A program made the translations under genes and the position numbers. 64,000 nt of DNA from Candidatus Zixiibacteriota bacterium (GTDB lineage Bacteria > RBG-13-66-14 > B26-G2 > WVWN01): positions 945 through 64,944 of the forward strand of contig JAUWLW010000011.1 in assembly GCA_030613505.1 (NCBI GenBank). The letters run 5' to 3'. Below are positions 2,578-64,000 of the stretch, one piece after another. Below the pieces are notes generated by a model. It was not told where the DNA came from. It saw only the letters and a list, made by a program, of their open reading frames with translations, and ran no database searches. Positions within the stretch are counted from its first letter, which is position 1, and each line of letters starts with the position of its first letter.

Positions 2578-2874
2578 TTACTCCAAAACTTTTTTCTTCC
2601 GCGGCCGGCCCCGTTTTCGCGGCAATTGTACGCCCCGCTCGATGGCCTTCTCGACATCACCTCGGCGGACGCGCCAACCGCCGCCCAGCCGAACCGCGCG
2701 AAGCCCGAACTTCCCAGTAGCCGCGAATAATTGGCACCATCGTGTTATCGTGCTAGGGTCGCGGACCAGGATACGCGCGACCTGAGCCACGGTATATAGC
2801 CTCTCGAAACTATTTTCGATCCGACCGTCTATCGCAGTCGATTTTTTATCGCCGGCCGCGTTTTCCTTAATCAT
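2578..2874 (-). CDS. AlpA/excisionase-like HTH DNA-binding protein
   Basis: 98 aa with YTVAQVARILVRDPSTITRWCQ...GGGWRVRRGDVEKAI, a MerR/AlpA-type HTH, plus a basic C-terminus. Divergent from the repressor and integrase genes. Confidence 0.5.
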   Translation of the reverse strand: MIKENAAGDKKSTAIDGRIENSFERLYTVAQVARILVRDPSTITRWCQLFAATGKFGLRAVRLGGGWRVRRGDVEKAIERGVQLPRKRGRPRKKKVLE

Positions 2875-3091
2875 TTATACCTCCTAGACTTACGTTTGCC
2901 TTTGACCCTTTCAGCTCGAGTTTTTCCTGGAATACCCTTTTTACTTGCAATCGCCTGAGAAATATGCTAAAAACTATTTATGCGCGATTTTAACACAAGA
3001 GGCCCCGAATGTCAATCTTTAATATGGCAAAGGCGTGACCCTGAAACCCTAAAACCCGTAAACCATTAAATACGCCTAAAGTGAGAACGAT

Positions 3092-49573: not shown

Positions 49574-49640
49574 TTCCCTTTACCTCCTCAAGCTACTGTC
49601 CTCTTAGATTAACTATAACAGGAAATACCGGACAGCGCCA

Positions 49641-49672
49641 ACTAAAAAAAGGGCCGACCTTAGGGTCGACCC
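49641..49672 (-). terminator. rho-independent terminator (GGGCCGACC-UUAG-GGUCGACCC + U7)
   Basis: Hairpin followed by a U-run on the minus sense. Confidence 0.55.
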
Positions 49673-49696
49673 GTACGTATATGAGCAAAAGGGAGG

Positions 49697-50659
49697 TTAT
49701 CTAAACAGCGCCTTCACGCGGCCGAGGGAGGCCGGCTCCACCGCGGGGTCGGAGGGGCGGAAGTACTGGATGCGGTCGTTATGGGTATCGGCCACGTAAA
49801 TTCTATCGCCCGCGGCGTTGGAAGCGATGCCCTCCGGTTCGTCGAATTGGCCGCGGCCCGTGCCGTACGTACCCCACTTGCCCAGGAAGGAGCCCGTAGC
49901 GGTGAAGTATTGGACGCGGTCGTTTTTGTTGTCGGTCACGAAAACGTGGTTACCGGCCGAGACGGCCACGCCGTACGGGTCGTCGAACCGGCCGTTGGCC
50001 GTGCCGTGCGAACCCCATTTGCCGAGGAACGAGCCCGTCGCCGTGAAGCGCTGGACGCGGTTGTTGTCGCCGTCGGCGACGTAGACGTTGCCGTTGGCCG
50101 CCACCGCTACGCCGACGGGGCCGTCGAACCGGCCGTTGGCCGTGCCGTGCTCGCCCCACTTGCCCAGGTAGGAGCCGGCGGAGTTGAAGTATTGGACGCG
50201 GTCGTTACCCCAATCGGCGACGTAAACGTTACCGCTCGAGGCGACGGCCACGCCGACGGGGAGGTAAAATTGGCCATTGCCGGGGCCCAACGAGCCCCAC
50301 TTGCCGAGGAACGAGCCGGTCGGCGTAAAATACTGCACCCGTTCGTTCATCCGGTCCGTTACGTAAACGTTGCCGTTCGGGCCCAGGGCTATGCCGGCGG
50401 GGAATTGGAACTGGCCGTCGCCGGAACCCGACGAGCCCCACTTCCCGTTGAAGGAACCGGTCGGGGTGAAATATTGGATCCGGTGGTTCCACTCGTCGGC
50501 TACGTAAACGTTGCCGCCCGGCGCCACGGCGACGCCGTCGGGCTGGTTGAACCGACCGTTGCCCGTTCCGGGCAATCCCCACTTGCCCGCGTAGACCCAG
50601 TCCGTGGCGGCGGCGGCCGCCGCGAGCGCCGCGGCCGTGATTATCGCGAGTTTCCTAAT
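49697..50659 (-). CDS. secreted NHL-repeat protein with tag ...DPAVEPASLGRVKALFR; canonical ATG replaced by ATT
   Basis: In-frame upstream extension IRKLAIITAAALAAAAAATDWVYAGKWG matches the signal peptides of paralogs. SD GGAGGT is intact. A TAA lies 2 codons upstream. The ORF track starts at TTG (50575). Confidence 0.55.
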   Translation of the reverse strand: MRKLAIITAAALAAAAAATDWVYAGKWGLPGTGNGRFNQPDGVAVAPGGNVYVADEWNHRIQYFTPTGSFNGKWGSSGSGDGQFQFPAGIALGPNGNVYVTDRMNERVQYFTPTGSFLGKWGSLGPGNGQFYLPVGVAVASSGNVYVADWGNDRVQYFNSAGSYLGKWGEHGTANGRFDGPVGVAVAANGNVYVADGDNNRVQRFTATGSFLGKWGSHGTANGRFDDPYGVAVSAGNHVFVTDNKNDRVQYFTATGSFLGKWGTYGTGRGQFDEPEGIASNAAGDRIYVADTHNDRIQYFRPSDPAVEPASLGRVKALFR

Positions 50660-50740
50660 TACCTGTTACCTCCTCGAGCTACCGCCCTCTGCGCATAAAT
50701 ATAATATAAAAACCTCGACGGCCACAAATAAAAACGGGCC

Positions 50741-50768
50741 GACCTTAAGGCCGGCGCGTACGTATATC
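50741..50768 (-). terminator. rho-independent terminator (GCCGGCC-UUAA-GGUCGGC + U5)
   Basis: Same terminator family as 49641 and 55062. Confidence 0.5.
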
Positions 50769-50826
50769 GCGGGGACAAGGGGCCGTTAACCGGCGGTTTT
50801 AACCGCCGGGTTGCCCCCTGTCCGAG

Positions 50827-50846
50827 CGGCCTTAGGGGCGCACAGC
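50827..50846. repeat. palindrome family member GGGCGCACAGCCGTGCGCCC
   Basis: Perfect 8+4+8 palindrome. Confidence 0.55.
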
Positions 50847-50902
50847 CGTGCGCCCTTACAAAAACTTTCCGCGTTTTCCGGTAACAACCGGCGCCACAGC
50901 GG

Positions 50903-50947
50903 TTACCGGAACAGCGCCCGGATACGGCCCGGCGAGGCGGCGACCCG
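50903..50947 (-). other. orphan, degenerate tag-coding remnant (...VAASPGRIRALFR*), out of frame with 50976..51986
   Basis: Reverse translation in the +1 frame relative to the NHL gene gives the tag. The NHL gene instead ends ...CGGCGGVLY*. Confidence 0.55.
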
Positions 50948-50975
50948 AATATAAACGCGCGTGAAGGCCACGCCC

Positions 50976-51986
50976 TCAGTATAGCACGCCGCCGCAGCCT
51001 CCGCACCCGTCGCGCGGCGTCCCGCCGCAAACAGGCGGCACCGGGATGGCGAAAAACTGGACCCGGTGGTTGCCGGAATCGACTACGTAAAGCAGTCCCT
51101 CGTACCGGGAGGCCGCGAGGCCGCGGGGGTGGTTGAACTCGCCGTCCCCGGCTCCCCGCCGGCCCCACGCGCCGACGAAATCGCCCGCGGAAGTGAACTC
51201 TTGAACCCGGCCGTTGCCCTTGTCGGCAACCAGTACGCCGTACCCGTCGCCCGTAACCGCTACCCCCTCCGGGAACCGAAACTCGCCGTGGGCCGAACCC
51301 TCCGAACCCCACGACGCAACGAAAGAACCGGCGGCGGTAAAACTCAGGACGCGGTGGCGTCCCCCGGCGCCGCCACCCTCGGTTACGTAAACCAGGTCGT
51401 CGCGCGGCGAGAGGGCGATGCCCAACGGGTAACCGAGGCGACCTTCGCCCTCGCCGGACCATTTTCCCAGGAAAACGCCGTCCGGGCCGAAACGTTGGAC
51501 GCGGCGGTTGAGAGTATCGACGACGTAGATCTCGCCGGAGAGGGGGTGGACGGCTACGCCGGTCGGGTACCGGAACTGGCCGTCGCCCTTCCCCTCCGAC
51601 CCGATCTGACCCAGAAACGAACCGGTGGAGGTGAAAATTTGGAGGCGGTGGTTGTACTTATCGGTGACGTACGTCGTCCCGTCCCAGGCCACGGCGACGC
51701 CGTGCGGCTCGCGGAACTGGCCGGGGCCGCCGCCCTCCGACCCCCACTTGCCGAGGAAGGAACCGCGCGAGGTGAAGTACTGGATCCGGTGGTTCAAGGT
51801 GTCGGCCACGTATACGTAGTGACGGTAAACGGCCACGCCGACGGGCGACAGGAATTGGCCGTCGCCCTTCCCCTCCGAACCCCACTGCCCCTTGTATTCG
51901 TAACGTCCGGGATCGCCGCGGGGCGTCGTCACCGTCGCGAGGACGAAAAGCAACGCCGCAGCAACTAAACGCCATAATGTTTTCAT
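50976..51986 (-). CDS. secreted NHL-repeat protein whose C-terminus has lost the tag (possible frameshifted or degraded end)
   Basis: Signal peptide MKTLWRLVAAALLFVLATVTTP. NHL repeats. Atypical Cys/Gly-rich C-terminus. A tag remnant lies 30-75 nt downstream. Confidence 0.65.
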   Translation of the reverse strand: MKTLWRLVAAALLFVLATVTTPRGDPGRYEYKGQWGSEGKGDGQFLSPVGVAVYRHYVYVADTLNHRIQYFTSRGSFLGKWGSEGGGPGQFREPHGVAVAWDGTTYVTDKYNHRLQIFTSTGSFLGQIGSEGKGDGQFRYPTGVAVHPLSGEIYVVDTLNRRVQRFGPDGVFLGKWSGEGEGRLGYPLGIALSPRDDLVYVTEGGGAGGRHRVLSFTAAGSFVASWGSEGSAHGEFRFPEGVAVTGDGYGVLVADKGNGRVQEFTSAGDFVGAWGRRGAGDGEFNHPRGLAASRYEGLLYVVDSGNHRVQFFAIPVPPVCGGTPRDGCGGCGGVLY

Positions 51987-51997
51987 CTTAACCCTCC

Positions 51998-52036
51998 TAC
52001 CGGGACAGCGCCCTCACGCGGCCCAGCGGAGGTACC
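51998..52036 (-). other. orphan tag-coding remnant (GKVPPLGRVRALSR*) between the T9SS-CTD gene and the next NHL gene
   Basis: +1 frame relative to the upstream gene. It ends at a TAG that directly abuts the SD of 50976..51986. Confidence 0.5.
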
Positions 52037-53975
52037 TTACCGTACCACCACCATACGCTTCGCCGCGGCCTCGCCGCCCGCCTCCAGCCGGTAAGTGTAG
52101 ACGCCCGGCGCGAGGTAAGACACGTCAAGCTTGAGCTTATTCGCGCCCGCGTCTGCCGACACGGCGCGGGAGGCGACCTTCCGCCCGGCCAGGTCGTAGA
52201 GCGCGAGCATGGCGTCGCAAGCCCCGGGGACCGAGAACGCGATCGTCGTGGCCGCTCGAGCCGGGTTGGGGACGTTCTGCGCCAGCGCGAAGGACGCTTT
52301 GCCGGCGCCGCCGGCGGTACAGTAAACCGGCCCGTAGGTCTCTTTGCCGCCGCTCAGGTCGACGGCCTCGAGCCAGAACTTATATTCCACGCCGCGGCCT
52401 ACTTCCCGGTCGAGGAAGTTATAAGGGGATTTGCCCGTGACGAGCGAAGCGTTGAGCCTGGCCTTAGCGTCGTCGCCCCCCGCGGAGGCGCGGTAGAGGT
52501 TGAAGCCGGCGCGGTTCCACTCGCCGGCGGTGGCCCAGCGGAGCAGGACGGCCTCGCCCTCGGCACGGGCGCCGAAGTAGTCCAGCTTGATGCCGATTCC
52601 CAAATCGGTATCGTAGCAGCAGGTATGGCGGCGGTCGTGGTTGTGCATGGGCCAGACCCGCGAGTCGGGGTCGCCGCCCAGGCGGAAAGCCTCGACGTAA
52701 CCGCCACCCCAATTAGAGGAGACGGTTACCATCTCAAGCGCGCCGTCGCGGTCAATATCCCATACGACCACCGAATTGCCGCTCGCGTCTCCCCTGGTCA
52801 CCACCGGGAAACCGGCCAGGGGAGAGCCGTCGTGGTTAAAACCTACAATATCGCCCCAATCTCCGTTCCCTACGATCTCGAAACGCCCGTCGCCGTCGAC
52901 GTCCGCCACCGCGGCGTTGCCTACGTCGCTTGCGCTGGAAACCGGAAAGCCGGGTATGGTGGTGCCGTCGTAATTCCACACGTAGACGTGGCCGCGCGAG
53001 TCATATTCGCGCGCTACGATTTCCAGATAGCCGTCGTTATCGATATCGGCCGCCGAGGCCGAAGCCCATATGCGTTTCACTTTTTTAGGCCACCCCGGCA
53101 AAACCTTGCCGTTTCCGCCCAGAAGGTAAAAATAACTCTGGCGCGGGTCCCACGACGGGGAAGCCGGCCCGGTCCCGAAAGCTATTTCCAAATCGCCGTC
53201 GTTGTCCCAATCCGCCAGCGTCGGCGCCGCGCCCGCCATGTACGTTTTCGCGTCGTGGAACAGGTACGGGAAGCCGCTCACGGCCGTACCGTCGGCGTTC
53301 CAGGCGAAAAGGGCGTGCCTACCCGCCCGGGTTTTACTCGAGAGGAGTATCTCCGGCTTGCGGTCGCCGTCTATGTCGCCTACCGCGAATCCGCTATAGG
53401 GCAAGCCGTATAGATTTTTGGGCCACCCGGGAAACCGCTTGCCGGCGCCGTCGTACACGCGGACCTTGCCGACGGGGTAGTTTCTCTCGGCGGCTATTAT
53501 CTCGCACGCGCCGTCGGCGTCCAGGTCCTCCAACGCTACCGTGCCGGATACGCGAATTTCATCTTTCGGAAACCCGCTCACGGCCTTGCCGTCGTGATGC
53601 CAGGCGTAAAGAGCGCCGCGGTCGCGGGCATACCAACCCCTGGCGCCGATTACGACTTCGAGGTCGCCGTCGCCATCTATATCGCCGACGGCCGGCGAGG
53701 ACGTGAAGTAATAACCGGACCGGTGGACCTGGGTCGGGAAGCCGGGGAATTCGGTCCCGTTGGGCCGCCAGACGTGACATTTCCCGTCGGCGGCGGCGAC
53801 CACTACGTCGTCCTTTCCGTTGCTATCGAGGTCGGCGACGACGGCCCCGTCGAGCGGCCGCAAAGAACCGGCTACGCCTATTGCTCTCTCCCAGAGCTTC
53901 ACCGGCCCTACGCCCCAAACGCCGAGGGGCGCGCACGCCGCGGCGCCGACGAAGCATAGAATTATCTTTCGCATG
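52037..53975 (-). CDS. FG-GAP/VCBS-repeat protein with T9SS type-A (FlgD Ig-like) C-terminal sorting domain
   Basis: Start trimmed to MRKIILCFVGAAACAPLGVWG. Many DxDGDG FG-GAP motifs. C-terminus LAQNVPNPARAATTIAFSVP...LYDLAGRKVA...GVYTYRLEAGG...KRMVVVR matches TIGR04183. Confidence 0.75.
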
Positions 53976-54030
53976 TCCCTACCCCTTTCCTCCTCGCCCC
54001 GGGACGCGGTCGCCGAGGCGGTATAAGCAA

Positions 54031-54050
54031 GGGCGCAAGGCCTTGCGCCC
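54031..54050. repeat. palindrome family member GGGCGCAAGGCCTTGCGCCC
   Basis: Perfect 20-bp palindrome abutting the stop of 54051..54992. Confidence 0.55.
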
Positions 54051-54992
54051 CTACCGGAACAACGCCCGCAGCCGTCCCAGCGACGTGGGCGCGACGGCGG
54101 GGTTAGCGTATTCGAAATATACGACCCTATGTCCACCATAGTCCGCCACGTAGACGCGACCTCCGTCCGGCGTCACCCGGACGCCGGTGGCCGAGAACCG
54201 GCAGAAAAAATTGAGGTAAGAACCGGAGGAGGTGTAGATATATATGCGTCGGTACCCCAACAGGCAGACGAACACGGTACCGTCCGTTCCCACGTCGATG
54301 CCCGTGGGGCCACTCATAAAGCCGGTGCCCCACTTGCCGAGGAAGGAGCCCGCGGCGGTGAAGTATTGCACGCGGTCGTTTTCGTACTCGGTGACGTAGA
54401 CGGTGCCGCCGCCGCTAAAGGCGATTTGGTCGGGCGTATTGAATTGGCCGTCGCCGGTACCGTACGAGCCCCACTTGCCGAGAAAGGACCCGGCGGCGGT
54501 GAAGTATTGGACGCGATGGTTTAGGCTGTCGGCTACGTAGACGTACCCGTTCGGCCCGCGCCGTACGCCGAACGGCTCGTTGAATTGGCCGTCACCCGAA
54601 CCCAACGCGCCCCATTTTCCCAGGAACGAACCCGTCGAGGTGAAGTATTGGACGCGGTGGTTGCCTATCTCGGAGACGTAGGCCGTGCCGTCGGCGGCGA
54701 CGTATATGCAGACCGGCTTGTCGAATTCGCCGTTGCCCGTGCCCCGCGAGCCCCATTTGCCGAGAAAGGACCCGGCGGCGGTGAAGTATTGGACGCGGTG
54801 GTTATGGGTGTCGGCGACGTAGACGTTACCGTTGGGCGCCAACGCCAAGCCGTACGGTATGTAAAACTGGCCGTCGCCCGACCCCTCGGAACCCCATCCG
54901 CCGGCCTTGACGTATCGGGGGGGCGAGGCCCAAACGCAAACGGCCGCCAGCGCGCCGAGCGCCGCGGCCGTAGTTATCGCGAGTTTCCTCAT
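54051..54992 (-). CDS. secreted NHL-repeat protein with tag ...NPAVAPTSLGRLRALFR
   Basis: MRKLAITTAAALGALAAVCVWA signal peptide. Confidence 0.85.
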   Translation of the reverse strand: MRKLAITTAAALGALAAVCVWASPPRYVKAGGWGSEGSGDGQFYIPYGLALAPNGNVYVADTHNHRVQYFTAAGSFLGKWGSRGTGNGEFDKPVCIYVAADGTAYVSEIGNHRVQYFTSTGSFLGKWGALGSGDGQFNEPFGVRRGPNGYVYVADSLNHRVQYFTAAGSFLGKWGSYGTGDGQFNTPDQIAFSGGGTVYVTEYENDRVQYFTAAGSFLGKWGTGFMSGPTGIDVGTDGTVFVCLLGYRRIYIYTSSGSYLNFFCRFSATGVRVTPDGGRVYVADYGGHRVVYFEYANPAVAPTSLGRLRALFR

Positions 54993-55061
54993 TTCCCTTT
55001 ACCTCCTCAAGCTACTGTCCTCTGGAAATAAATATAACATAAAAACCTCGACAGTTACGAA

Positions 55062-55090
55062 TAAAAATGCGCCGACCTGAAGGTCGGCCC
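55062..55090 (-). terminator. rho-independent terminator (GCCGACC-UUCA-GGUCGGC + U-run)
   Basis: Downstream of 55143..56243. Confidence 0.5.
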
Positions 55091-55142
55091 CTACAATTCC
55101 AGTTTAGCGGGGGCGGTTGAGGTCAACGGCGAGCTCCCCCGG

Positions 55143-56243
55143 TCATTTCAACTCGCCCTCGACCCTCTTGATATACCGCTTAACCTTCGCGTTCCCGGGG
55201 TCGTAGATCAGCGCCCGGCGCCAGGCCTTGAGCGCCGCCGTAAGCTTGCCGCGGGAATATAGGTCGAGGCCGTGGAGGAGGTAGGCGTCGACCAATTTAC
55301 CGCGGGCCGCGCCGTAGGTGGGATGCTCCCCCACGACGGCGCCGAGGATGCGTATGGCGCCGCCGATGTCGCCGCCGGAGAGAGCGGCCTTCCCCCGCCC
55401 GTAGGCTTCGACGGCCTCCGGCGGGATGGTACGTTTTACAACCTCCGGCTCCGGCTCGGGCCTGGGCACCGGCCTCGGCCTGGGCGCGGGCGCGCGAAGG
55501 CTCTCGGCGAGCAGGCGCTCCGACTCCTGCAGCAGCTCGTCCGCCTCGGCGTGGCCCGGGTACGCGGCGAGCACCTCTTTACTTATTTTTATGGCTTCGT
55601 GGTAATCGCCCCGGCCGTTGGCCTCCCCGACTTCGGCGAGTTTTTCCGCGACGGCCTCCTCCTCGGCGATGAGGGCCAACCTCTCTTCCTCGAGGCGCCT
55701 TGCCTCGGCGATGCGGGCCTGTCTCTCTTTCTCGAGCCGTCGAACGCGCCCCGTGCTGAAGCGCACGCCCACCTCGACCTTGAAACCGGTATCCGCTTCT
55801 TCGCCGACAAAGAAGAGGACGCCCGCATCCACGTACGGCGACAGCGACACCCGGGGAATGTCGAAGTCGCAGCCGGCGGCGAAGTTGACATACGCGCCGG
55901 TCTTTGCCTCGTTTATTTTTGTATCGTCCTCGTCTAAGGCGTGGGCGGCGCCCAGGCCGAACGCCAGATGGGGCTGGAAGACGTCGTGAAGGCTGGGGAT
56001 AACGTAAAACCTCGCCGCGGCGCCGCCGTAGAACGCGCGGCCGCCGCCGAAGCCCAGCGCGAACTCCGGCCCGATGCAGACGTACGGCGAGAGCATGAAG
56101 TTGCGCTCGCCGCCGACGTAGCCGTCGGCGAGGCCGCCGGCGCCCAGGCCGAAGGTCAAGCCGGAAAGGCCGTGTGGCAAAGCAATCGCGGCCGATGTGG
56201 CCGCGAGCGTCAAAACCGCCGCAATCGTCGCCGTTTTTTTCAT
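55143..56243 (-). CDS. outer-membrane beta-barrel-like N-domain + coiled coil + Pro-rich linker + TPR-like C-domain protein
   Basis: Signal peptide. Gly/aromatic-rich N-terminal 170 aa. PRPRPVPRPEPEPE linker. Helical C-terminus. Confidence 0.55.
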   Translation of the reverse strand: MKKTATIAAVLTLAATSAAIALPHGLSGLTFGLGAGGLADGYVGGERNFMLSPYVCIGPEFALGFGGGRAFYGGAAARFYVIPSLHDVFQPHLAFGLGAAHALDEDDTKINEAKTGAYVNFAAGCDFDIPRVSLSPYVDAGVLFFVGEEADTGFKVEVGVRFSTGRVRRLEKERQARIAEARRLEEERLALIAEEEAVAEKLAEVGEANGRGDYHEAIKISKEVLAAYPGHAEADELLQESERLLAESLRAPAPRPRPVPRPEPEPEVVKRTIPPEAVEAYGRGKAALSGGDIGGAIRILGAVVGEHPTYGAARGKLVDAYLLHGLDLYSRGKLTAALKAWRRALIYDPGNAKVKRYIKRVEGELK

Positions 56244-56321
56244 ATCCCTACACGCCTGCGCCCCTCCGGCGCCTTAGCTTACATTATAACACAACGCCGG
56301 CGGCGAAGCAAATCGCGTAAA

Positions 56322-56366
56322 AGGAAAGGCCGCCCCGGCGGGCGGCCCTTCAAGGACAAGGGGCTA
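56322..56366 (-). terminator. two tandem GC hairpins (GGCCGCCCCGGCGGGCGGCC; AGGGGCTAAAGCCCCT) downstream of 56377..56964
   Basis: Minus-sense U-rich tail after the first hairpin. Confidence 0.4.
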
Positions 56367-56376
56367 AAGCCCCTCC

Positions 56377-56964
56377 TTAACGAAATACCGCCCGGACGCG
56401 GCCCAGCGAGGTTGGGGAGACGGCGGGTTCGCCGGCGTCAACGACGACGTTGTCCAAGTCCCAGGCGTAAACGGCTACGTGCTGCGGGTGCCGGTTCTGG
56501 ACCCACACCTCGAAGCGGGCCTTCACCAGGCCCTCGTGCGTCGCGACCGCCGTACCCCTAAATACCCGCCACGTGGACGTCAACGGTATCCGGTGCGAGG
56601 CGAAAACCTCTTCCGGCTGGGTCGCGTAGAGCAACGAGAAGGTCGCCCGGTTCTCCGCCTCGAAGCCGCCGTGGCCGTACTTGTAGTCGAAACGAAACGC
56701 CAGCTCGGTTTTGGCGGGCACGGCGAAGGAGTAGGTATCCATCTTGGCCCACCGCTCGGCGCTCGCGGAGCTGGACGCCCACCCCACGGCGAACTTCCCC
56801 CACGGCCCGCCGGCTTCCGCGTCCCAGCCGGCCCCCGCGCCGCTCTTGCTCGACGTCCACCGGGGCGGCGGAACGCTTTGCTCAAACTTTTCGTCGACGT
56901 AGGTCGCGGCGTCCGCAAAGCCGGCCGCCGCCAACGCAGCTACTACTATAAGCCATAACTTCAC
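56377..56964 (-). CDS. secreted non-NHL protein (fold B) with tag ...EPAVSPTSLGRVRAVFR
   Basis: GTG start at 56964 with a perfect SD GGAGGTG 6 nt upstream. Signal peptide MKLWLIVVAALAAAGFADA. Confidence 0.6.
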   Translation of the reverse strand: MKLWLIVVAALAAAGFADAATYVDEKFEQSVPPPRWTSSKSGAGAGWDAEAGGPWGKFAVGWASSSASAERWAKMDTYSFAVPAKTELAFRFDYKYGHGGFEAENRATFSLLYATQPEEVFASHRIPLTSTWRVFRGTAVATHEGLVKARFEVWVQNRHPQHVAVYAWDLDNVVVDAGEPAVSPTSLGRVRAVFR

Positions 56965-57253
56965 GTTGGTCACCTCCGTGAGGCGATATCTCGCGCGAAG
57001 GCCGTCGGCGCCTTGCCGCCGGCCGAAAGGCATACGCCGAAAAACAACGCCAGGTCGGCCGTTTGGCCTACCTGGGCACTGTTCGCTTCCGCGCGGCTCT
57101 TGCCGCGACGTACCGGCGTTACGCCCGATTCCGTTTCCCCCGACATATCTTAGCCACCTTGACAAGCCAATATAAAATAATTCGTTGAATTAGTCAATTA
57201 AAAAGTGTCCCAATCATCAAACGGCGTTACGCCGCGCCCGCCCCTTCCGAATG

Positions 57254-57275
57254 GGGGCGTACAGCTGTACGCCCC
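57254..57275. repeat. palindrome family member GGGGCGTACAGCTGTACGCCCC
   Basis: Perfect 22-bp palindrome overlapping the stop codon by 1 nt. Upstream arm CGCCCC (57241-57246) can alternatively pair with it. Confidence 0.6.
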
Positions 57276-58240
57276 TACTTAAATATCGCCTTTACCCGGC
57301 CGAGGGAGGTGGGGGTAACGCGCGCCACGTTCCGGTTGAAGTACTGGACGCGGCAGTTGCCCGAGTCTCCGACGTACGCCCGGGCGCCTGATCCCGAAAC
57401 GGCAACGTGCGCCGGCTGTTCGAATTGACCTTCCCCGGCCCCCCTCGAGCCCCATTTGCCGAGGAAGGACCCGCTCGAGGTGAAGTATTGCACGCGGTGT
57501 AAGTCAATGTCCGTCACGAAGAAGTCGCCGTTAGGCGCGGCGGCGATGCCCCACGGCGCTAAGAACTCGCCGTCCCCGCGGCCCTCGCGGCCTACAACGC
57601 CGAGTAACGAACCCGCGGCGGTGAAGCACTGCACGCGAGAGTTCAGCGTATCCGCTACGTACACGCGGCCGTTGGGGCCGACGGCTACGCCGCAAGGCAT
57701 CACGAACTGCCCCGCCGCCGAGCCGTAGTACCCCCATTTGCCGAGAAACGAACCGGCGGGCGTGAAATATTGTATACGATGGTTCAAGGAATCCGCTACG
57801 TAGACGTTCCCGTTCCCCGCAACGGCGACATCTTCGGGGAGGAAAAGTTGACCGTCGCCGGAACCGAACGTGCCCCACTGGCCCAAGTACGAGCCGGCGG
57901 CGGTAAAGTACTGGATACGGTCATTACCCTCGTCCGCGACGTACACGCGGCCGCCACCGGCAACTGCCATGCCGGTGGGTTGTTCGAATTGGCCGTTACC
58001 AGAGCCGAACGAACCCCAACGCCCCAAGAACGAACCGGACGCGGTGAAGTATTGCACGCAATCGTTTGCGTGGTCAGATACGTAAACGTTACCCGTGGGC
58101 CCGACCGCAACGCCGCGAGTTGAGTTAAACTGGCCGTTCCCCGAACCGCGACTGCCCCATTGGCCCTCGTACGTCCAAGCGCCCCAGGCCGCGGCGGCCA
58201 CGAGCGCCGCCGCCGTCAAAACAACTAAAACCCTCTTCAC
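57275..58240 (-). CDS. secreted NHL-repeat protein with tag ...VTPTSLGRVKAIFK
   Basis: MKRVLVVLTAAALVAAAAWGA signal peptide. Confidence 0.85.
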   Translation of the reverse strand: MKRVLVVLTAAALVAAAAWGAWTYEGQWGSRGSGNGQFNSTRGVAVGPTGNVYVSDHANDCVQYFTASGSFLGRWGSFGSGNGQFEQPTGMAVAGGGRVYVADEGNDRIQYFTAAGSYLGQWGTFGSGDGQLFLPEDVAVAGNGNVYVADSLNHRIQYFTPAGSFLGKWGYYGSAAGQFVMPCGVAVGPNGRVYVADTLNSRVQCFTAAGSLLGVVGREGRGDGEFLAPWGIAAAPNGDFFVTDIDLHRVQYFTSSGSFLGKWGSRGAGEGQFEQPAHVAVSGSGARAYVGDSGNCRVQYFNRNVARVTPTSLGRVKAIFK

Positions 58241-58251
58241 CTCTTAACCTC

Positions 58252-59181
58252 CTACTTAAACAACGCCTTCACGCGGCCCAGCGAGGCCGGAACTACGGCC
58301 GTGGCCGTATCGTCGAAGTATTGGACGCGGCAGCCGTAGTAATCGGTGGCGTACGCGCGCACACCCGAGGGCGAAACGGCCACGTCATGGAGGAGGGTGA
58401 ATAGGCCGACACCTTCGCCGGGCCCGCCGAATATGCCGAGCCAGGAGCCGGTAGCGCTGAAGTAATCGACGCAGTGATTGTACGTATTGGCGACGAACAC
58501 TATCCCCGACCTCGAGACGTCGAGTCCGCGCGGGTCGTCGAATTCGCCGGGCCCCTCGCCCCATTTACCCCACGCACCCAGGAACGAGCCGGTAGGCGTG
58601 AAGTATTGGACGCGGCTGTTGCCGTTGTCGACTACGTAGACGGTACCGTTCAAGGCGACGGCGATACCGTCCGGGTTATAAAATTGGCCGGGGCCCGAAC
58701 CTTCGGAACCCCACGAACCGAGCAACGAGCCGGTGGGGGTATAATACGACACGCCGGGAAGCCAGAATTCGCTCACGTATACGTTGCCGTCGGGCGCCAC
58801 GGCCACGTCCATCGGGGAGGCGAGACAGCCCCAGGAACCGACGAACGAGCCCGTCGAGGTGTAGTAACGAACGACGCTGCCCTGGGAATCGATTACGTAG
58901 ACGACGCCGCGGCGCGAGACGTCGATGCCGCCGCCGCCGGGGTTATTCCATTGGCCGAGGTACGAGCCGGCGGAGGTGAAGCACTGAACCCTTTTCGTCC
59001 CCGAGTCGATTACGTAGACGTTGCCGTTGGGCGCGGTAGCCAAGGCGTAGGGGCCGGCGAACTCCCCCGGCCCGGACCCGTACTTACCCCACGTGCCCGC
59101 GTACTGGTACGTGGGAGCCGCGACCGAGGCCGCGGCGGCCGCGAGCGCGACTGCAGTTAAAACAACTAAACCCGTCTTCAT
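58252..59181 (-). CDS. secreted NHL-repeat protein with tag ...VVPASLGRVKALFK
   Basis: MKTGLVVLTAVALAAAAASVAAP signal peptide. Confidence 0.85.
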   Translation of the reverse strand: MKTGLVVLTAVALAAAAASVAAPTYQYAGTWGKYGSGPGEFAGPYALATAPNGNVYVIDSGTKRVQCFTSAGSYLGQWNNPGGGGIDVSRRGVVYVIDSQGSVVRYYTSTGSFVGSWGCLASPMDVAVAPDGNVYVSEFWLPGVSYYTPTGSLLGSWGSEGSGPGQFYNPDGIAVALNGTVYVVDNGNSRVQYFTPTGSFLGAWGKWGEGPGEFDDPRGLDVSRSGIVFVANTYNHCVDYFSATGSWLGIFGGPGEGVGLFTLLHDVAVSPSGVRAYATDYYGCRVQYFDDTATAVVPASLGRVKALFK

Positions 59182-59500
59182 CGTTCTACCTCCTCTTCGA
59201 TTTATGAACGCTTTCTTTTATTGCGCCGTTGAGCCGGTTGTGAATAAAAAAGGCCGGGCCGGCGCGGAGCCGAACCCGGATAGTATTCTCTTATGAGCGA
59301 CCGGACCGTCGGCCGCGTTCGTTACGCACTCCCGTTTCCTCCGATCCGGGCATAACCCTGACCTCCTTAGGAAATCGCCCGGTTAAATTTCTACGCCAAC
59401 CCTATGTGGACATTATGACACCGGCCTGTACCCAAGTCAAGCAAAAACTATCCTAATCATTAATTATTTAGTAAGGTTGACATATGCTTATTTTAGTACG

Positions 59501-59524
59501 GAAAAAAGGGGCCGCGCGGGCCCC
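59501..59524 (-). terminator. rho-independent terminator GGGGCCGCGCGGGCCCC + U6
   Basis: Hairpin with AAAAAA on the plus strand (U6 on the minus sense). Confidence 0.6.
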
Positions 59525-59533
59525 TGCCGAATG

Positions 59534-59555
59534 GGGGCGTACAGCTGTACGCCCC
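59534..59555. repeat. palindrome family member GGGGCGTACAGCTGTACGCCCC
   Basis: Identical to the copies at 57254 and 63961. Confidence 0.6.
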
Positions 59556-59611
59556 TACCGGAACAACGCCTTCACGCGGCCGAGGGAGGTGGGCGCAACG
59601 CCGGGCCTTCT
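59555..59611 (-). other. orphan tag-coding remnant (...RRPGVAPTSLGRVKALFR*) without an NHL body
   Basis: Out of frame and downstream of the membrane-protein stop at 59629. The ORF-track 59555..59968 ORF is otherwise Arg-rich junk. Confidence 0.55.
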
Positions 59612-59628
59612 CGCGTTGCGCGCCGATC

Positions 59629-60117
59629 TCAACATCCTGATAATTGGCTCAACCATATCAGTAAACCGCAAATTAATCCCACCGCGCCGCTGGTTCCGCC
59701 GAGGACGACGGTCCATTTTACCGCGCGCCAACCGGGGTATTCGTAGAGTAGCTCGCCCCGGGCGGCGGCCCCGGCGCTCGCGAAGGCGCCGTAAACGAGA
59801 AGTCCTATCCAAACGACGCCCCCCAACGTACCGCCGAAGAGGATTATTATGAAGATGACTTGCCCGAACCCTTCGGCGGCGTCGAGTCGCCCGAATATCG
59901 TCGCCACCGCGGCCCAACCTGCGACCACATAGTAGAAGGCGAGCGTCGTCGCCGCCACGGCGAGCCAAAGCTCGAGGGCGCGAAAGAGATGGTGCCGGAC
60001 GAAGGTATTAACGAAAGCTGCGGGGATCGCGAGGGGTAGCGCAACCAGGAAATACGAGCCGGCGGCTACTGACCGCGCGGCCTTATTCGATTCGACGACG
60101 TCGCGAGGCGAAGACAT
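59629..60117 (-). CDS. polytopic membrane protein, hypothetical
   Basis: Start trimmed to MSSPRDVV.... Four or more hydrophobic helices. The upstream 160 aa of the ORF-track ORF are Arg-rich GC artefact. Confidence 0.5.
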   Translation of the reverse strand: MSSPRDVVESNKAARSVAAGSYFLVALPLAIPAAFVNTFVRHHLFRALELWLAVAATTLAFYYVVAGWAAVATIFGRLDAAEGFGQVIFIIILFGGTLGGVVWIGLLVYGAFASAGAAARGELLYEYPGWRAVKWTVVLGGTSGAVGLICGLLIWLSQLSGC

Positions 60118-60164
60118 GGTAAACGTTGCCGCTAAGGCGAGTGTGATACCCGCGGCCCAGGCCG

Positions 60165-60720
60165 CTAGACGCGCACCGCCATCGTGACGCACGCCTCCGG
60201 GCAGACGTCGGCGCACAGGCCGCAGCCGTAGCACTTCTCGTCGGCGACGGCCAGCTTGCCGTCGGCTATCTCGCGGGCGCCGAAGTAGCACACGTCGACG
60301 CAGGTCCCGCAGGCCGCGCACGCGCCCATATCGATGCGGGCGGCGAACATCCCCCGGTCGCACGCCGCCGTCTCCACGTCCGACCGGAAGTAGTAGCAGC
60401 AGTCGTCGCAGCAGAAGCAGATCCCCTGGACGCGGGTTTTGTCCTCCTCGTACCGGAACGGCCGGACGACGAGGCGCTTGTCCTCCGCCTCCTTCATTAT
60501 CCCGGCGACGAAGTCGGCGCCTACCTCGCGGAAGTCGGAGCCGGTCCCGGCCATCTGCGTGTCGAAGAAGAGGCACACGTCGGCGCGGGAGCGTTGACAC
60601 CCCGGCTCACCCTCACGGCAGCCGCAGTTGGAGACCCAGAACTTGTCGAACCCGGCGATCAGCTCCTCCGCCTCCTCGCGCGTCGCGACGTAGTGGAAAT
60701 GCAGCTCGTCGTCTTTCATA
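60165..60720 (-). CDS. 4Fe-4S dicluster ferredoxin-type domain protein
   Basis: Start at MKDDELHF (SD GGAGGT). CAACGTCVDVC and CYGCGLCADVCP motifs plus an extra Cys cluster. Confidence 0.65.
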
Positions 60721-60835
60721 ATATTACCTCCAAGCGTTAACAAGGGGCTTAAGCCCCCTGGCCGGCGCGCCGCCGTCAAGGGGGAAAGCCTCCCGCGGCG
60801 CCGCTACGTTACGAAAGGAAATACGAAGCCGTATA

Positions 60836-61783
60836 TTAAAACGCGCGGACGACCGACGGTAGTATTTGGACCGCGAACGCGAAGGCAAAGGGTAGCAGGA
60901 CGGACGATAAAAATATAATAATAAAAAACGAGGTGGCGTCGAATTTCCTCTCGGCGACGTCGTCCGGCGCAAGCTGCCGCCCCGCTACTAACGCGAGGTA
61001 AAAAAGCGGCAACCACGCGAAAATCGTCGCGGCAAGGCCGACGTCGTAGCGTCGGGAAAAACACGCCACTATCAGCGCCGCCGGCAACGCGGCAAGCAAC
61101 CCCCAGCGCACGGGCCGCCACACCGGCGCGAGTTCCCTCGTTAACGCCCGGCCAAAATGATACCGTCGGGCGGTCGCGCCGCGGTACCGCGTTACGACGA
61201 GAGCATACAAGAGGAAGTAGGCCGCGGCGATGGCGGCGGCGACGGCGAGGTAATGGCCTATTATGAAACTCCATACCCGCGTAGGCTCTTCGGCCCGGTA
61301 AGAAACCGCCAGGCCGCCAACGGCGACGGCCGCCAAGAGAGAAACGGGCCAGAAGCCGAAGACCACCGCCACGTCGAGTAGTTTCTTTTTCCCCTCCTCG
61401 GTCGCCGGCACCGCGGCCCGTTGGAGGGCGTACGGCGCGCGAAGTAAAAAAGACGCGTTAATCCACAACGCCGCTAAGTAAAAAGCGCCGAGCGCCATAC
61501 GGCTCAGGTCGCCGGGGAGGTCGACAAGCTCGTACAGGAAAGAGGCGACGACGAAAACGGTCACGTAACTCGCTACGCGGAAAAACTCCCGCACCGTAAC
61601 GGGCGACGAATCGCCCGCAGAAGCGAAGGCCTTTAAAAGCGGGCCGGCGGCAACTGCGAAATACAACGCCGTGAGCGCCAGCCACGGGTAAGGTAAATAA
61701 AAGAGCAACCCGGCGTACGCCGCGGCCGCCGTCGCGTACCATACTACGTAAACCGACCTGGATACTTTGGCCTCGGCCTCCAT
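60836..61783 (-). CDS. polytopic membrane protein, hypothetical
   Basis: 315 aa with about 8 hydrophobic segments. Confidence 0.55.
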   Translation of the reverse strand: MEAEAKVSRSVYVVWYATAAAAYAGLLFYLPYPWLALTALYFAVAAGPLLKAFASAGDSSPVTVREFFRVASYVTVFVVASFLYELVDLPGDLSRMALGAFYLAALWINASFLLRAPYALQRAAVPATEEGKKKLLDVAVVFGFWPVSLLAAVAVGGLAVSYRAEEPTRVWSFIIGHYLAVAAAIAAAYFLLYALVVTRYRGATARRYHFGRALTRELAPVWRPVRWGLLAALPAALIVACFSRRYDVGLAATIFAWLPLFYLALVAGRQLAPDDVAERKFDATSFFIIIFLSSVLLPFAFAFAVQILPSVVRAF

Positions 61784-61796
61784 AACGTAAATATGC

Positions 61797-61832
61797 GAAA
61801 AAGGCGCGCCGCCGTCAAGGGCGGAGCGTCGC
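61797..61832. repeat. 36-bp direct repeat GAAAAAGGCGCGCCGCCGTCAAGGGCGGAGCGTCGC (left copy)
   Basis: 28/28 identical core with 63132..63167. Partial copies at 60764-60785 and 63903-63925. Confidence 0.65.
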
Positions 61833-61949
61833 GGGCCGGTATATTGTCATTTAAATACGGCAATAACGTAAAAATAGAATTGCGAAAAACACAAATTCTT
61901 TCCCTGGAATTGCGAAAAACCGCTCTTAATTACAAATTTCAGTCATAAC

Positions 61950-63134
61950 TCACTCAGAAAAAAGGATTTCGAAAATCGGATCGGCGATAAAAGCCTTCGG
62001 ATATTTAATTTCCCCTAACTGACTTAAGATACCCAATTCGACTAATCTATTTACGCAATCCCTCGCAACGCTATATTTAACGCTTAATATTACCGCCGCT
62101 GATTTATAAGTAATAACCGGATTTCCTATTAAAGCTTCTGCTAGCTCAACGTCAGAAGCCGATGCCCTGGGGCGCTTTATCAGCTCGCGCCAATCCTTCC
62201 TAAGTGCGTCCAAAGCGTTAATACGCCTTCCAACGTCCGCAGCTTGGGTTCTAATAGCTTCCAGGAAAAAAAGTATCCATTCGCGCCACGCACCTTTGGT
62301 ACTAACTTCAAACATCAAATCACAGTAGGCCTCTTTATTATTTTCAAAGTAACGGCTCAGGTGTAGTAACGGGGTGGGTAAAAGGCCCCAATAAACTAAT
62401 AAAAATATAACTAACAACCTGCCTATCCGGCCGTTCCCGTCCCGGAACGGATGGATCGTTTCGAATTGGTAGTGGATAAACGCAAGCCTTACCAACTTTG
62501 GATAATTGTCATTCGCGTGTAGGTATTTCTCAAACGCGTCCAGGCAATTTTCAATTTCCGGCGGTGGCGGCGGTATAAAAACGGCTTCTTGAACCGTCCC
62601 GCGTCCTCTTACGCCTACCTGGAGGCGCCGGAACTGACCTAACTCTGCTTCCCCTCCACGCACCCCGGTCATTAGTATTTTGTGCAATTCGCGTATTAAC
62701 CTTAAACTCAAAGGAGTTTTCGTTTGGTCCAAAGCATACTCAATCGCGGCGACGTAATTAAATACTTCCTTTAAGGCGGCAGCCCGGGGGTCGGTTTCAA
62801 ACCCCGGTAGTTTAAGTTGCCCAGCTTCGTACGCGTACAGGTCTTTAATATCGACGACGGTACCCTCAATGATCGATCCTAGGCGCGCCTCCCGGCGAAT
62901 AAAAGGCCGAACGAATAGGTTAGCATTCTCGACTTTTCTACCCAGGCCGTCCAACGCGCCCAAAGCGAGCGAAGCCTCCTCGACCGCGCCAGTTAAATCG
63001 CTCAAATCTATGCGAGGCGGAAGAGGCTTAGGTATAAACGCCCAATCGCCTCCGTATTTCGTCGAAATCGGGACGAGTTTACCGGGGGCGTCTTCCGTAA
63101 AAAGGCCAGCGTCCATCGAACACGATAATATCAA
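61950..63134 (-). CDS. Fic-family protein (AMPylation motif HPFRDGNGRIGR)
   Basis: 394 aa with FIHYQFETIHPFRDGNGRIGRLL. A degenerate inhibitory-helix-like GSIIEG. C-terminal wHTH-like region. GC roughly 45% versus roughly 68% in the flanks. Confidence 0.85.
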   Translation of the reverse strand: MILSCSMDAGLFTEDAPGKLVPISTKYGGDWAFIPKPLPPRIDLSDLTGAVEEASLALGALDGLGRKVENANLFVRPFIRREARLGSIIEGTVVDIKDLYAYEAGQLKLPGFETDPRAAALKEVFNYVAAIEYALDQTKTPLSLRLIRELHKILMTGVRGGEAELGQFRRLQVGVRGRGTVQEAVFIPPPPPEIENCLDAFEKYLHANDNYPKLVRLAFIHYQFETIHPFRDGNGRIGRLLVIFLLVYWGLLPTPLLHLSRYFENNKEAYCDLMFEVSTKGAWREWILFFLEAIRTQAADVGRRINALDALRKDWRELIKRPRASASDVELAEALIGNPVITYKSAAVILSVKYSVARDCVNRLVELGILSQLGEIKYPKAFIADPIFEILFSE

Positions 63135-63167
63135 AAAAGGCGCGCCGCCGTCAAGGGCGGACGTCGC
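63132..63167. repeat. 36-bp direct repeat (right copy)
   Basis: CAAAAAAGGCGCGCCGCCGTCAAGGGCGGACGTCGC. Confidence 0.65.
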
Positions 63168-63803
63168 TCAGTCGGTTACTCCCGGCGGCAGGTGTACCGC
63201 GAAGGTGCAGCGCTCGTCGCCCCGCATGACGGACCGGAGGACCTCGACGCGCACCGGCCTCTCGACGATGAACTCCCAGATACGGCCGTACCACCCGCCG
63301 CCGCAGCAGCAGTAGGGCTCCGGCGCGGGCGTCGTCGCCGCCCCGGCCCGGGCCAGCGGGCAGTGGCAATAGGCGACCCGCCTCTCGTCCGGCGTTTGGG
63401 CGGCCGCGAACGCCTCGGCGTCGCCGGGGGCCTTGGTCTCGTAGATGACGTCGCCCTCGCGGTAAGGGCGGGAGTGCTTTTCGGGGTCGCGGGCCATGGC
63501 CTCGAAGACCGCGTCCACGCCGCCGGCCTCTCGGTAAATTTTCCGCAGCTCGAGCAGCGGCTCGTCGCCGAACTCCTCGACGAAGACGCAGGCCCGGCGT
63601 TCCATTATCTTCTCGCGCGTCGCGACGTCGGGGACGGCCTCGGCCAGCCGCTCCATCGCCAGCCGCGACCAGGCCGCGCGCTCCTCGGGGGAGGCTTCGG
63701 CCAGCTCCCGGTGGCCCTCCAGGACCCGCTCGCTGACGCCCGGGCCGGCGTGCTCGTCGATAAGCCGGGCCCACTTGGCCATCTTTTCCTCCAACCAACC
63801 CAT
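63168..63803 (-). CDS. hypothetical Cys-rich protein
   Basis: 211 aa with CHCPLARA...CCCGGGWY. No recognisable family. Confidence 0.45.
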   Translation of the reverse strand: MGWLEEKMAKWARLIDEHAGPGVSERVLEGHRELAEASPEERAAWSRLAMERLAEAVPDVATREKIMERRACVFVEEFGDEPLLELRKIYREAGGVDAVFEAMARDPEKHSRPYREGDVIYETKAPGDAEAFAAAQTPDERRVAYCHCPLARAGAATTPAPEPYCCCGGGWYGRIWEFIVERPVRVEVLRSVMRGDERCTFAVHLPPGVTD

Positions 63804-63919: not shown

Positions 63920-63928
63920 GGGGGATGA

Positions 63929-63950
63929 AAAAGGGGCCGCAGGGGCCCCT
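63929..63950 (-). terminator. rho-independent terminator GGGGCCCCUGCGGCCCC + U5
   Basis: Same architecture as 59501..59524. Confidence 0.55.
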
Positions 63951-63960
63951 TCCGAAGTAG

Positions 63961-63982
63961 GGGCGTACAGCTGTACGCCCCT
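63961..63982. repeat. palindrome family member GGGGCGTACAGCTGTACGCCCC
   Basis: Third identical copy. Confidence 0.6.
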
Positions 63983-64000
63983 ACCGGAATAACGCCTTCA
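63982..64000 (-). CDS. C-terminal end (...KALFR*) of another tag-bearing gene running off the right edge
   Basis: Reverse translation gives ...(V)KALFR-stop, immediately followed by palindrome + spacer + terminator exactly as in the other cassettes. Confidence 0.5.

Follow-up and report, generated by a model that had tools for sequence, protein, structure and literature searches.

An orphaned protein tag joined to a GTAG-type REP hairpin and a terminator behind a membrane-protein gene in a Candidatus Zixiibacteriota contig

How the last codons of a protein can come to stand behind a gene to which they do not belong is the question raised by a short element in contig JAUWLW010000011.1 of assembly GCA_030613505.1 (Candidatus Zixiibacteriota bacterium), of which a stretch of 64,000 nucleotides, termed the window in the following, was analyzed. 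The element, referred to here as the orphan cassette, occupies positions 59502-59602 on the minus strand. It opens with 15 codons of a C-terminal protein motif, GVAPTSLGRVKALFR (59602..59558), hereafter called the tag, to which no gene body is attached; minus-strand translation of 59611..59555 yields RRPGVAPTSLGRVKALFR followed by a stop. The TAG stop codon (59557..59555, minus strand) together with the last base of the preceding CGG codon (59558) forms the GTAG head of a sequence resembling a repetitive extragenic palindromic (REP) element, i.e., a perfect 22-nt palindrome, GGGGCGTACAGCTGTACGCCCC (59534-59555), that has its first G in common with the stop. A 9-nt spacer, CATTCGGCA (59533..59525, minus strand), separates the palindrome from an intrinsic terminator predicted by a terminator scan on the transcribed strand and 3' of a gene, consisting of the stem-loop GGGGCCCGCGCGGCCCC (59524..59508) with a G+C-rich stem of seven pairs and a TTTTTT run (59507..59502). 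Tag, palindrome, spacer and terminator without a gene body had all been described in the initial annotation and are confirmed. The spacer given there as CCGAAU exists but had been read on the plus strand, and what had been called a perfect copy is exact with regard to the palindrome only, the cassette sharing 88% identity over 91 nt with that of the gene at 57275. The orphan is non-coding, is joined to a GTAG-type REP and a conserved terminator, lies at a recurrent rearrangement junction and exchanges sequence with live copies. Our preferred reading, which we regard as fairly probable though well short of certain, is that the cassette constitutes the surviving non-coding 3' end (15 codons, stop, REP and terminator) of a tagged gene without its body and that this end has been refreshed by gene conversion.

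The gene in front of the orphan (59629..60117, minus strand) encodes an untagged multi-pass membrane protein of 162 amino acids, ends with TGA (59631..59629) and is the last gene of a block encoding, in this order, DUF6144, Fic, membrane, Fer4 and membrane proteins. A 26-nt junction (59603..59628, minus strand) leads from its stop to the orphan; homology to the complete genome CP070633, introduced below, fades here, and the 3' arm of a 9-bp hairpin at 59593-59621 is made up of the first tag codons. Tag and membrane gene are in different frames, the distance from stop to stop is 74 nt, and orthologs of the membrane gene in L004 and L005 (sequences compared with the window are designated by L and a number throughout) end with the same final residue and have no tag behind it. 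An open reading frame (ORF) of 137 codons in the tag frame (59555-59968), a frame that stays open for 150 codons, is an arginine-rich out-of-frame reading of the membrane gene. Among 20 related orphans with a long upstream ORF, the three frame offsets relative to the upstream gene occur 6, 6 and 8 times. Because the orphan is out of frame with its upstream gene, because orphan frames are random and because the copy at the same place in L154 has decayed, the orphan is considered non-coding. Tagging of upstream genes by readthrough or frameshift was rejected, given the 6/6/8 offsets and the use of all three stop codons in the in-frame cases.

The same junction is present in independent assemblies and the orphan is therefore not an artefact. 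The ENA contig L001 (14.1 kb, 99.2% identical) is colinear with window positions 63756..49630, orphan included, and L154, a metagenome contig from a 97%-identical relative, spans membrane gene, orphan, palindrome, terminator and the next gene. The Logan contigs L002 and L003 both carry the membrane gene and the same block; L002, read to both ends, starts at the REP-like hairpin of 63843 and stops inside the orphan tag, as is expected of a short-read assembly at repeats, and on the side of base 64000 all contigs of the same species break at the repeats; no record was found of the DUF6144 protein of the window. A chimeric assembly or a collapsed repeat, named initially as the finding that would overturn the orphan, could appeal to the repeat nature of the cassette and to the two ends of L002 in repeat copies, but is refuted by the longer independent assemblies L001 and L154, which cross membrane gene, orphan and the first downstream NHL gene unbroken, and its probability is negligible.

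With regard to the tag itself, 112 distinct intact tails from the window and related contigs gave the 15-residue consensus [AG]-V-x-P-[AT]-S-[LV]-G-[RK]-[VI]-K-A-L-F-[RK]-stop, which the orphan matches at 15/15 positions (E=1.7e-13 against the tag profile, nhmmer). Ten reading frames in the window end with the motif. For the neighbouring NHL protein, the best named relative stems from Candidatus Coatesbacteria (complete genome CP070633); the tag terminates 67 of 120 homologs of this protein, and homologs labelled as Zixibacteria are untagged. Scans of three tagged proteins gave no Pfam or NCBIfam model extending over the tag, which sets it apart from known C-terminal sorting domains such as PEP-CTERM and the C-terminal domain of the type IX secretion system (T9SS). 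N-terminal signal peptides are present on the tagged proteins examined, and a classical T9SS protein with Por_Secre_tail is encoded by a separate gene of the same genome. From homolog distribution, the lack of a family model, the signal peptides and the separate Por_Secre_tail protein we infer a lineage-specific C-terminal motif of exported proteins and a candidate secretion signal. Tags are present and GTAG hairpins absent in CP070633, L128 and L129 (27 kb seen); from the tags without hairpins in CP070633 and L128 it follows that the tag is older than the hairpin expansion. In contigs not picked for hairpins, window and L124 together contain 4 orphans and 14 intact tails and L128 and L129 0 orphans and 12 intact tails, numbers too small to carry the idea that orphans are confined to places with hairpins.

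What stood at the site is indicated by CP070633, in which the orthologs of the NHL genes 58252-59181 and 57275-58240 form the same tandem, 12 nt apart. Over about 350 nt upstream of this pair, window and CP070633 share 80% identity from the terminator through promoter and leader into the first NHL gene; the aligned stretch comprises, in order, the terminator GGGGCCCGCGTGGCCCC-T5, an AT-rich stretch, the promoter TTGACT-17-CATAAT and the leader. In the window, this sigma-70-like promoter of the downstream NHL gene pair was located by a promoter scan at 59412..59440 (minus strand); like the terminator of the orphan cassette, it is kept in L129, L124 and L154. Directly before the orthologous terminator, CP070633 carries an intact gene for a tagged non-NHL protein of 160 amino acids, ending with RLTFTAAGVAPTSLGRIKTFLK and a stop. 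The orphan codons for GVAPTSLGR align with the end of this gene, and the gap between its stop and the terminator consists of 23 unrelated bases where the window has palindrome and spacer. Orthologs of the 160-aa gene with 85% identity occur in L124, L137 and L133, and no homolog was found anywhere in the window. L124 likewise has this terminator, promoter and leader; in front of them stand a 191-aa gene, broken hairpins and a tag remnant reading only CCGGTAA. Terminator, AT-rich promoter region, leader and NHL pair are orthologous in four lineages while the upstream neighbour varies, being the 160-aa tagged gene in CP070633, the membrane gene with the orphan in the window and L154, and the 191-aa gene with hairpin debris in L124; the junction is therefore a site of repeated neighbour replacement. 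Since CP070633 has the 160-aa tagged gene at the same junction, the orphan most likely represents the remains of the 3' end of such a gene, judged from synteny and alignment. As expected of a pseudogene remnant, it has an intact tagged gene as its counterpart at the syntenic position of a relative and has lost coding constraint, with homology traceable through the 15 tag codons only. The deletion of an NHL gene, at first suggested as an outcome of comparison with sister genomes, probably did not take place here, the intact gene of CP070633 being of another family.

The conserved leader of about 230 nt upstream of the NHL pair (window 59182-59412, minus strand) has a ribosome-binding site (RBS), a 20-codon upstream ORF, MPGSEETGVRNERGRRSGRS followed by a stop (59353..59291, minus strand), and a terminator-like hairpin with a U-run (59279..59246, minus strand) with one compensatory pair in its stem. 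It is kept in L154, L129, L124, L088 and L184, is without an Rfam match and looks like an attenuator or a cis-regulatory leader.

In comparison with L154, the orphan tag is more diverged than its immediate flanks. Identity between window and L154 amounts to 96.9% in the coding sequence of the membrane gene, 96.6% in the 26-nt junction and stop, 77.8% in the tag (10/45 positions differ), 95.8% in stop and palindrome, 78% in the terminator and 87.5% in promoter and leader, and the difference between the tag and the adjoining segments (96-97% identity) is significant (Fisher p=0.011). The L154 orphan, at the same place, reads AVAPPSLGNVRALFR followed by a stop, with Asn where 112/112 intact tails have Arg or Lys. 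Two further cassettes of the window are relevant in this context. Cassette A (63928..64000, minus strand) consists of the codons for KALFR and a stop, the same palindrome, the spacer TACTTCGGAA and a terminator, and is a direct repeat of the orphan, cassette B, 4.4 kb upstream of it. Cassette C (57223-57313, minus strand) is the live tail of the NHL gene 57275-58240 and has the same palindrome, a spacer and half a terminator; tag codons, palindrome, spacer and the first half of the terminator are common to B and C although the genes are unrelated, and the L128 ortholog of the cassette-C gene (92% amino acid identity) is followed by other sequence after its stop. The spacer is common to the orphan and cassette C (there CATTCGGAA); variants are TACTTCGGAA in cassette A and L088, and CACTTCGGCA in L154. 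At site A, L154 has the end of an intact 320-aa NHL gene with a different hairpin variant and a second hairpin where the window has the site-B palindrome, tag and terminator being conserved, and L124 has an orphan. Judged from the L154 ortholog, cassette A (63960) probably terminates an NHL gene that is intact and continues beyond the window. Tails A and B of one genome have bases in common that are different in the other genome (window, GCGTT(A/G)TTCCGG; L154, GCGCTGTTCAGG), and the window orphan is identical to the cassette-A tail of L154 at 42/48 positions, with an unbroken run of 27 nt. Patchy divergence and bases shared within each genome are the pattern expected of gene conversion, which the initial annotation had proposed and which is supported here; the window orphan probably looks intact through conversion from a neighbouring live tag.

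On the preferred reading, the body of a 160-aa-type gene would have been lost or displaced as the block from DUF6144 to the membrane gene came to the site. Its tail would have been kept because deletions removing the stump would also damage the adjoining REP and terminator, which may now end the transcript of the DUF6144-Fic-membrane-Fer4-membrane block and insulate the promoter of the NHL genes. The window orphan would then have been overwritten, through gene conversion, from a live tag nearby (cassette A or C), and the L154 copy may represent undisturbed decay. At present, REP hairpin and terminator would serve to end the operon of the membrane gene at its 3' side, and the tag codons would be without function.

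Is the palindrome a private part of the cassette? The window holds seven GGGCG-N10-CGCCC hairpins (47836, 50836, 54031, 57255, 59535, 63843 and 63961), all of which lie between genes and on the minus strand, from which the adjoining genes are read; five have a GTAG, one a GTAA and one an ATAG head. The hairpins at 54031, 57255 and 59535 adjoin tags, 63961 adjoins a tag end, and 47836 and 63843 stand without a tag. The exact palindrome is present in three copies (57254, 59534 and 63960) vs. none expected from 100 shuffles. With the orphan reading CGGTAG followed by GGGCG, the 22-mer has the head as well as the size and shape of GTAG-type REPs (a G+C-rich palindrome of 20-40 nt forming a stem-loop), its stem comprising 9 bp in the RNA fold. 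In related loci, 80 of 88 non-redundant hairpins bear a GTAG head on at least one side, the commonest central cores are ACTGGCCAGT, CAAGGCCTTG, CACAGCCGTG and TACAGCTGTA, and in all loci hairpins adjoin only tags stopped by TAG, never by TAA or TGA. Hairpin density ranges from seven in the 64-kb window and eight in 21 kb of L124 to none in 27 kb of L128/L129. The palindrome is thus, by its sequence features, a GTAG-headed REP that also occurs without tags and is missing from the orthologous site of CP070633. Doublets of the REPIN (REP doublets forming hairpins) or BIME (bacterial interspersed mosaic element) type are absent from the window, whose hairpins are singletons of the same orientation, 63843 and 63961 being direct repeats 118 nt apart. 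At gathering threshold, Rfam gave a single tRNA in the window and no other match.

In the minimum free energy fold of 59495-59635 (minus strand), GGCCGCG of the tag pairs with CGCGGCC of the terminator around the palindrome and the terminator hairpin is unformed (z=-2.6). This pairing may be an alternative structure or arise by chance in GC-rich sequence.

GTAG REPs and their REP-associated tyrosine transposases (RAYTs) are known, cyanobacteria included, and it is often from this GTAG that an adjoining ORF has its TAG stop (PMC3733652); GTAG-tagged REPs and RAYT/TnpA-REP transposases have also been treated elsewhere (PMC2817692, PMC8266576). A motif screen of related contigs uncovered a single Y1 transposase, in L165 (2581-3066), which scored 88.8 bits with NF047646 ("REP-associated tyrosine transposase"; cut-off 80) and 48 bits with PF01797 (Y1_Tnp), over the curated cut-off. 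It is flanked by modules of tag and GTAG hairpin of the orphan's REP family, and at this locus (2425-3243) the RAYT lies between two 75-nt direct repeats containing a 160-aa-family tail, the tag and GTAG. A RAYT with 80% identity to the former in L225 (21-684) has 46-nt direct repeats of a methylase-like tail, LYGLTAEEIEIVE and a stop, that end with GTAG. At the RAYTs of L228, L231 and L226, the direct repeats on the two sides consist of REPs or REP doublets and include no gene tail. Flanking direct repeats are thus found 594-744 nt apart in 5/5 RAYT loci examined, and in two of the five (L165 and L225) the repeat continues upstream past GTAG and takes in 42-71 nt of a gene tail. Behind its RAYT, L226 also carries an orphan methylase-like tail.

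As a 28-nt palindrome, GTAGGGGCGTACAGCTGTACGCCCCTAC, the exact 22-mer is present in high copy number in Nostoc-type cyanobacteria (L006-L123, comprising Nostoc, Amazonocrinis and Desmonostoc) among the matches listed, where the copies usually form the centre of longer inverted-repeat units resembling miniature inverted-repeat transposable elements (MITEs); one copy is found, again among the matches listed, in a metagenome-assembled genome of the Terriglobia. No RAYT was found beside the Nostoc palindrome copies examined. Identical REP cores in unrelated phyla suggest transfer of REP/RAYT pairs or strong convergence. The genome scan with the exact palindrome accordingly returned mostly Nostoc-type cyanobacteria and, among the matches listed, one useful relative, L088; in metagenomes, palindrome plus spacer gave 0 matches and tag plus TAGGGGCG gave matches. 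No description was found in a literature search on the palindrome sequence.

The orphan is not alone. A 48-nt tail profile applied to Coatesbacteria-like sequence distinguished 171 intact tails, 19 intermediate forms and 44 short non-redundant orphans, a ratio of orphans to intact tails that is biased because the sample was partly selected for tag and hairpin; orphans make up about one fifth of tag-like sequences in related metagenomic contigs. Their left boundaries fall anywhere within profile positions 1-27, somewhat more often at 7-8 and 21-23, and a defined element with a fixed left end was rejected for this reason. Many stand 0-45 nt behind the stops of unrelated genes, e.g., glycosyltransferase and lipoprotein genes in L124 and a PAS/HD-GYP gene in L088, and L154 has three in succession, one each behind its Fer4, 352-aa and membrane-protein genes. 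Arrays in which tag, hairpin and second hairpin are repeated in direct tandem occur in L139, L184, L190, L157 and L194; those in L139, L190 and L157 are direct repeats, and inverted doublets appear only beside the more distant RAYTs (L228 and L231). Some orphans are without any hairpin (window 51997, L154 5921).

Within the window, a second orphan tag, PPLGRVRALSR followed by a stop (51997-52032, minus strand; nhmmer E=1e-3), comes 39 nt after an FG-GAP/Por_Secre_tail gene has stopped. The RBS of the NHL gene that follows shares bases with the TAG of this orphan, an arrangement also seen between live NHL genes in tandem. A third remnant of 14 nt, CGGCCTGGGCCGCG (60151..60164, minus strand), follows the Fer4 stop. 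At this Fer4 site, L154 and L194 carry a full orphan, in L154 (4764-5951) succeeded by the 352-aa gene and a further degenerate orphan; the window deletion joins two GGCCGCG microhomologies and has removed the 352-aa gene. The two remnants cited initially in support of a mobile 3' end are of a different nature: 50903-50939 is a degenerate tail, ASPGRIRALFR and a stop, in the +1 frame after the NHL gene 50975-51985 (ending with GGVLY and a stop) and thus the frameshifted tail of that gene, and the other, 63960, is cassette A.

A related situation is found in L166 (6186-9235), L185 (2531) and L193 (12038-13410), where, in at least four tandem NHL paralogs, an in-frame TAG separates QYFKKRD from the tag. 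Beyond this stop, the tags are partly degenerate, and the tag-removing nonsense mutation therefore seems to have spread by gene duplication.

Several observations weigh against a surviving 3' end refreshed by conversion. Cassettes A and B form direct repeats around a 4.3-kb block in the window and in L154, and insertion of the block between duplicated modules fits this equally well. The placement of orphans 0-45 nt after many unrelated stops (three in L154, two in L088, two in L124) is more regular than random deletions would be expected to produce. Upstream of the tag there is no homology to the 160-aa gene, so that orthology of the tag rests on position and nine shared residues, and AVAPTSLGR is also found in an NHL tail (54051). 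The divergence of the tag is marginal against the intergenic baseline (binomial p=0.05, 12.5% divergence). Finally, tblastn detected no RAYT in the window, and the enzyme is known from the related contig L165. In another explanation, which we hold to be possible but improbable as the main cause, a portable 3' module of tag and GTAG REP, in part with second hairpin or terminator, itself duplicates, and the orphan arrived as a copy or the block integrated between A and B, either by a RAYT taking the 5' flank along or by Campbell-type recombination between modules. The flanking of the block by A and B, the orphans directly behind unrelated genes, the tandem arrays and the 75-nt and 46-nt repeats around the RAYTs of L165 and L225 (tail, tag and GTAG in the former, another tail and GTAG in the latter) all fit such duplication, as do the recurrence, in different contigs, of second hairpin, linker and tag from profile position 7-8, a class of orphans starting at GGCCGCG (profile position 21-27) and the exchange of hairpin variants at site A between window and L154 with tag and terminator conserved. 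It is at odds with the spread of left boundaries over profile positions 1-27, with orphans that are plain pseudogene tails produced by nonsense or frameshift mutation or lack any hairpin, and with the absence of tail duplication at 3/5 RAYT loci; moreover, the synteny with CP070633 already explains a tag at the orphan site, and REP transposition together with a flank has been demonstrated for no RAYT, the mechanism of REP dissemination being stated as unknown (PMC8266576). The surviving 3' end with conversion and the duplicating module are compatible with each other. That the 3' module is separable from gene bodies as a repeat unit, as the initial annotation had it, is borne out by the sharing between B and C, the tandem arrays and the 44 orphans vs. 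171 intact tails. An exchange of 3' ends among secreted-protein genes stays conjecture, no live gene with a demonstrably new 3' end having been found.

Continued use of the orphan tag, by frameshifting or readthrough onto the membrane protein or as a translated small ORF, MVEPIIRMLRSARNARRPGVAPTSLGRVKALFR, is very unlikely. In window and L154 alike, the tag frame meets no stop over the 3' part of the membrane gene, and the window tag is fully consensus, but long open frames arise by chance in GC-rich DNA; orphan frames are random, the L154 copy has non-consensus residues, the L004 and L005 orthologs of the membrane gene have no tag behind them, and the putative peptide is without a signal peptide, unlike the tagged proteins examined. 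Equally remote is an integron-like arrangement in which tag and hairpin form an attC-type site after each gene. The Fer4, 352-aa and membrane genes of L154, each followed by a tag-like module of the same orientation, recall such cassettes, and so does the extended imperfect palindrome formed in the fold by GGCCGCG and CGCGGCC, although the z-score of that fold is just -2.6. The cassette sequence contains no RYYYAAC/GTTRRRY core sites, the genes annotated in the syntenic contigs and in the last 8 kb of the window include no integrase, promoters and terminators of their own are found with several of the genes, and the hairpins are GTAG-headed and associated with a Y1 transposase, not with a tyrosine recombinase; machinery of the integron type was not encountered in these sequences. 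We further put forward, as a tentative and rather doubtful idea, that a REP/RAYT system of this Coatesbacteria-like lineage captured the last 8-25 codons of host genes, and that units of tail, TAG and REP, with or without terminator, were copied by the transposase or by recombination between modules, giving rise to orphans, arrays, module-flanked blocks and the occasional gain or loss of a tag; such a system would act as a shuffler of 3'-end cassettes.

Compared with known systems, the cassette agrees with GTAG REPs in being a G+C-rich perfect palindrome of 20-28 nt preceded by GTAG, in its extragenic position 3' of ORFs on the coding strand, in the presence of several variants per genome, in the provision of the TAG stop of the flanking ORF described earlier (PMC3733652) and in the RAYT amid repeats in L165. 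It differs in that the REP is recurrently joined to codons of one C-terminal protein motif, that tag and REP occur as orphans and in direct tandem arrays instead of inverted doublets (REPINs/BIMEs), and that the direct repeats on either side of two of the RAYTs include 42-71 nt of a gene tail. With pseudogene relics it has in common that it is body-less, out of frame and decaying in a sister lineage while a relative has the intact gene at the site; full consensus of the window copy, the share of about 20% among tag-like sequences and the clustering 0-45 nt past unrelated stops are not typical of such relics. Duplicated 3' ends of the att type, known from tRNA, transfer-messenger RNA (tmRNA) and protein genes, resemble the present case as gene-end direct repeats of about 50-110 nt flank a block, one copy being attached to a gene and the other orphaned (cassettes A and B; RAYT flanks of L165 and L225), but here the block is without integrase, the repeats undergo concerted evolution and block content varies among close relatives (presence or absence of the Fic and 352-aa genes). 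Integron attC cassettes share the imperfect palindrome directly after the stop of each gene in a same-strand series; R and L core boxes are missing from the cassette and no IntI or attI was seen among the genes annotated nearby, in contrast to the GTAG heads, the link to a Y1 transposase and the genes with own promoters found here. Rickettsia palindromic elements (RPEs) and other MITEs are small palindromic repeats that contribute coding sequence at or inside ORF ends. RPEs and coding MITEs are mentioned in PMC3733652 and PMC3184786. The orphan likewise combines a small palindromic repeat with an ORF end and is readable as protein; the tag, however, is an older, selected motif that is also present in the hairpin-free L128 and L129, and the repeat apparently acquired the tag and did not create it.

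REPs at stop codons, RAYTs and REPs as 3'-end structures of mRNAs are already known. In the literature searched, we found no description of a REP family linked to the codons of one protein motif, of a population of orphan tails, of direct tandem module arrays or of RAYTs bracketed by duplicated gene tails. REP copies that carry pieces of their 5' flank, be it tag codons or a methylase-like tail, represent natural barcodes of origin and flank length. If the pattern holds in complete genomes, it would provide a direct handle on the mechanism of REP copying and would mean that REPs can carry gene ends with a function, a candidate secretion signal among them, to new sites; the recurrence of orphan leftovers in the lineage hints at the route of REP spread. 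With regard to annotation, about one fifth of the tag-like sequences are dead, and the 137-aa ORF is not a gene in spite of its perfect tag.

Two observations on gene content may be added. The Fic/DOC gene (61950-63134) and the AT-rich stretch 61793-61948 are absent from L154, where DUF6144 directly precedes a gene for a 315-aa membrane protein; this difference is a recent gain or loss. Furthermore, dispersed 300-nt repeat blocks with 82-92% identity, spaced 3.6 and 6.7 kb, are found between 30944 and 43640 of the window and indicate recently duplicated segments of several kilobases with NHL-type genes.

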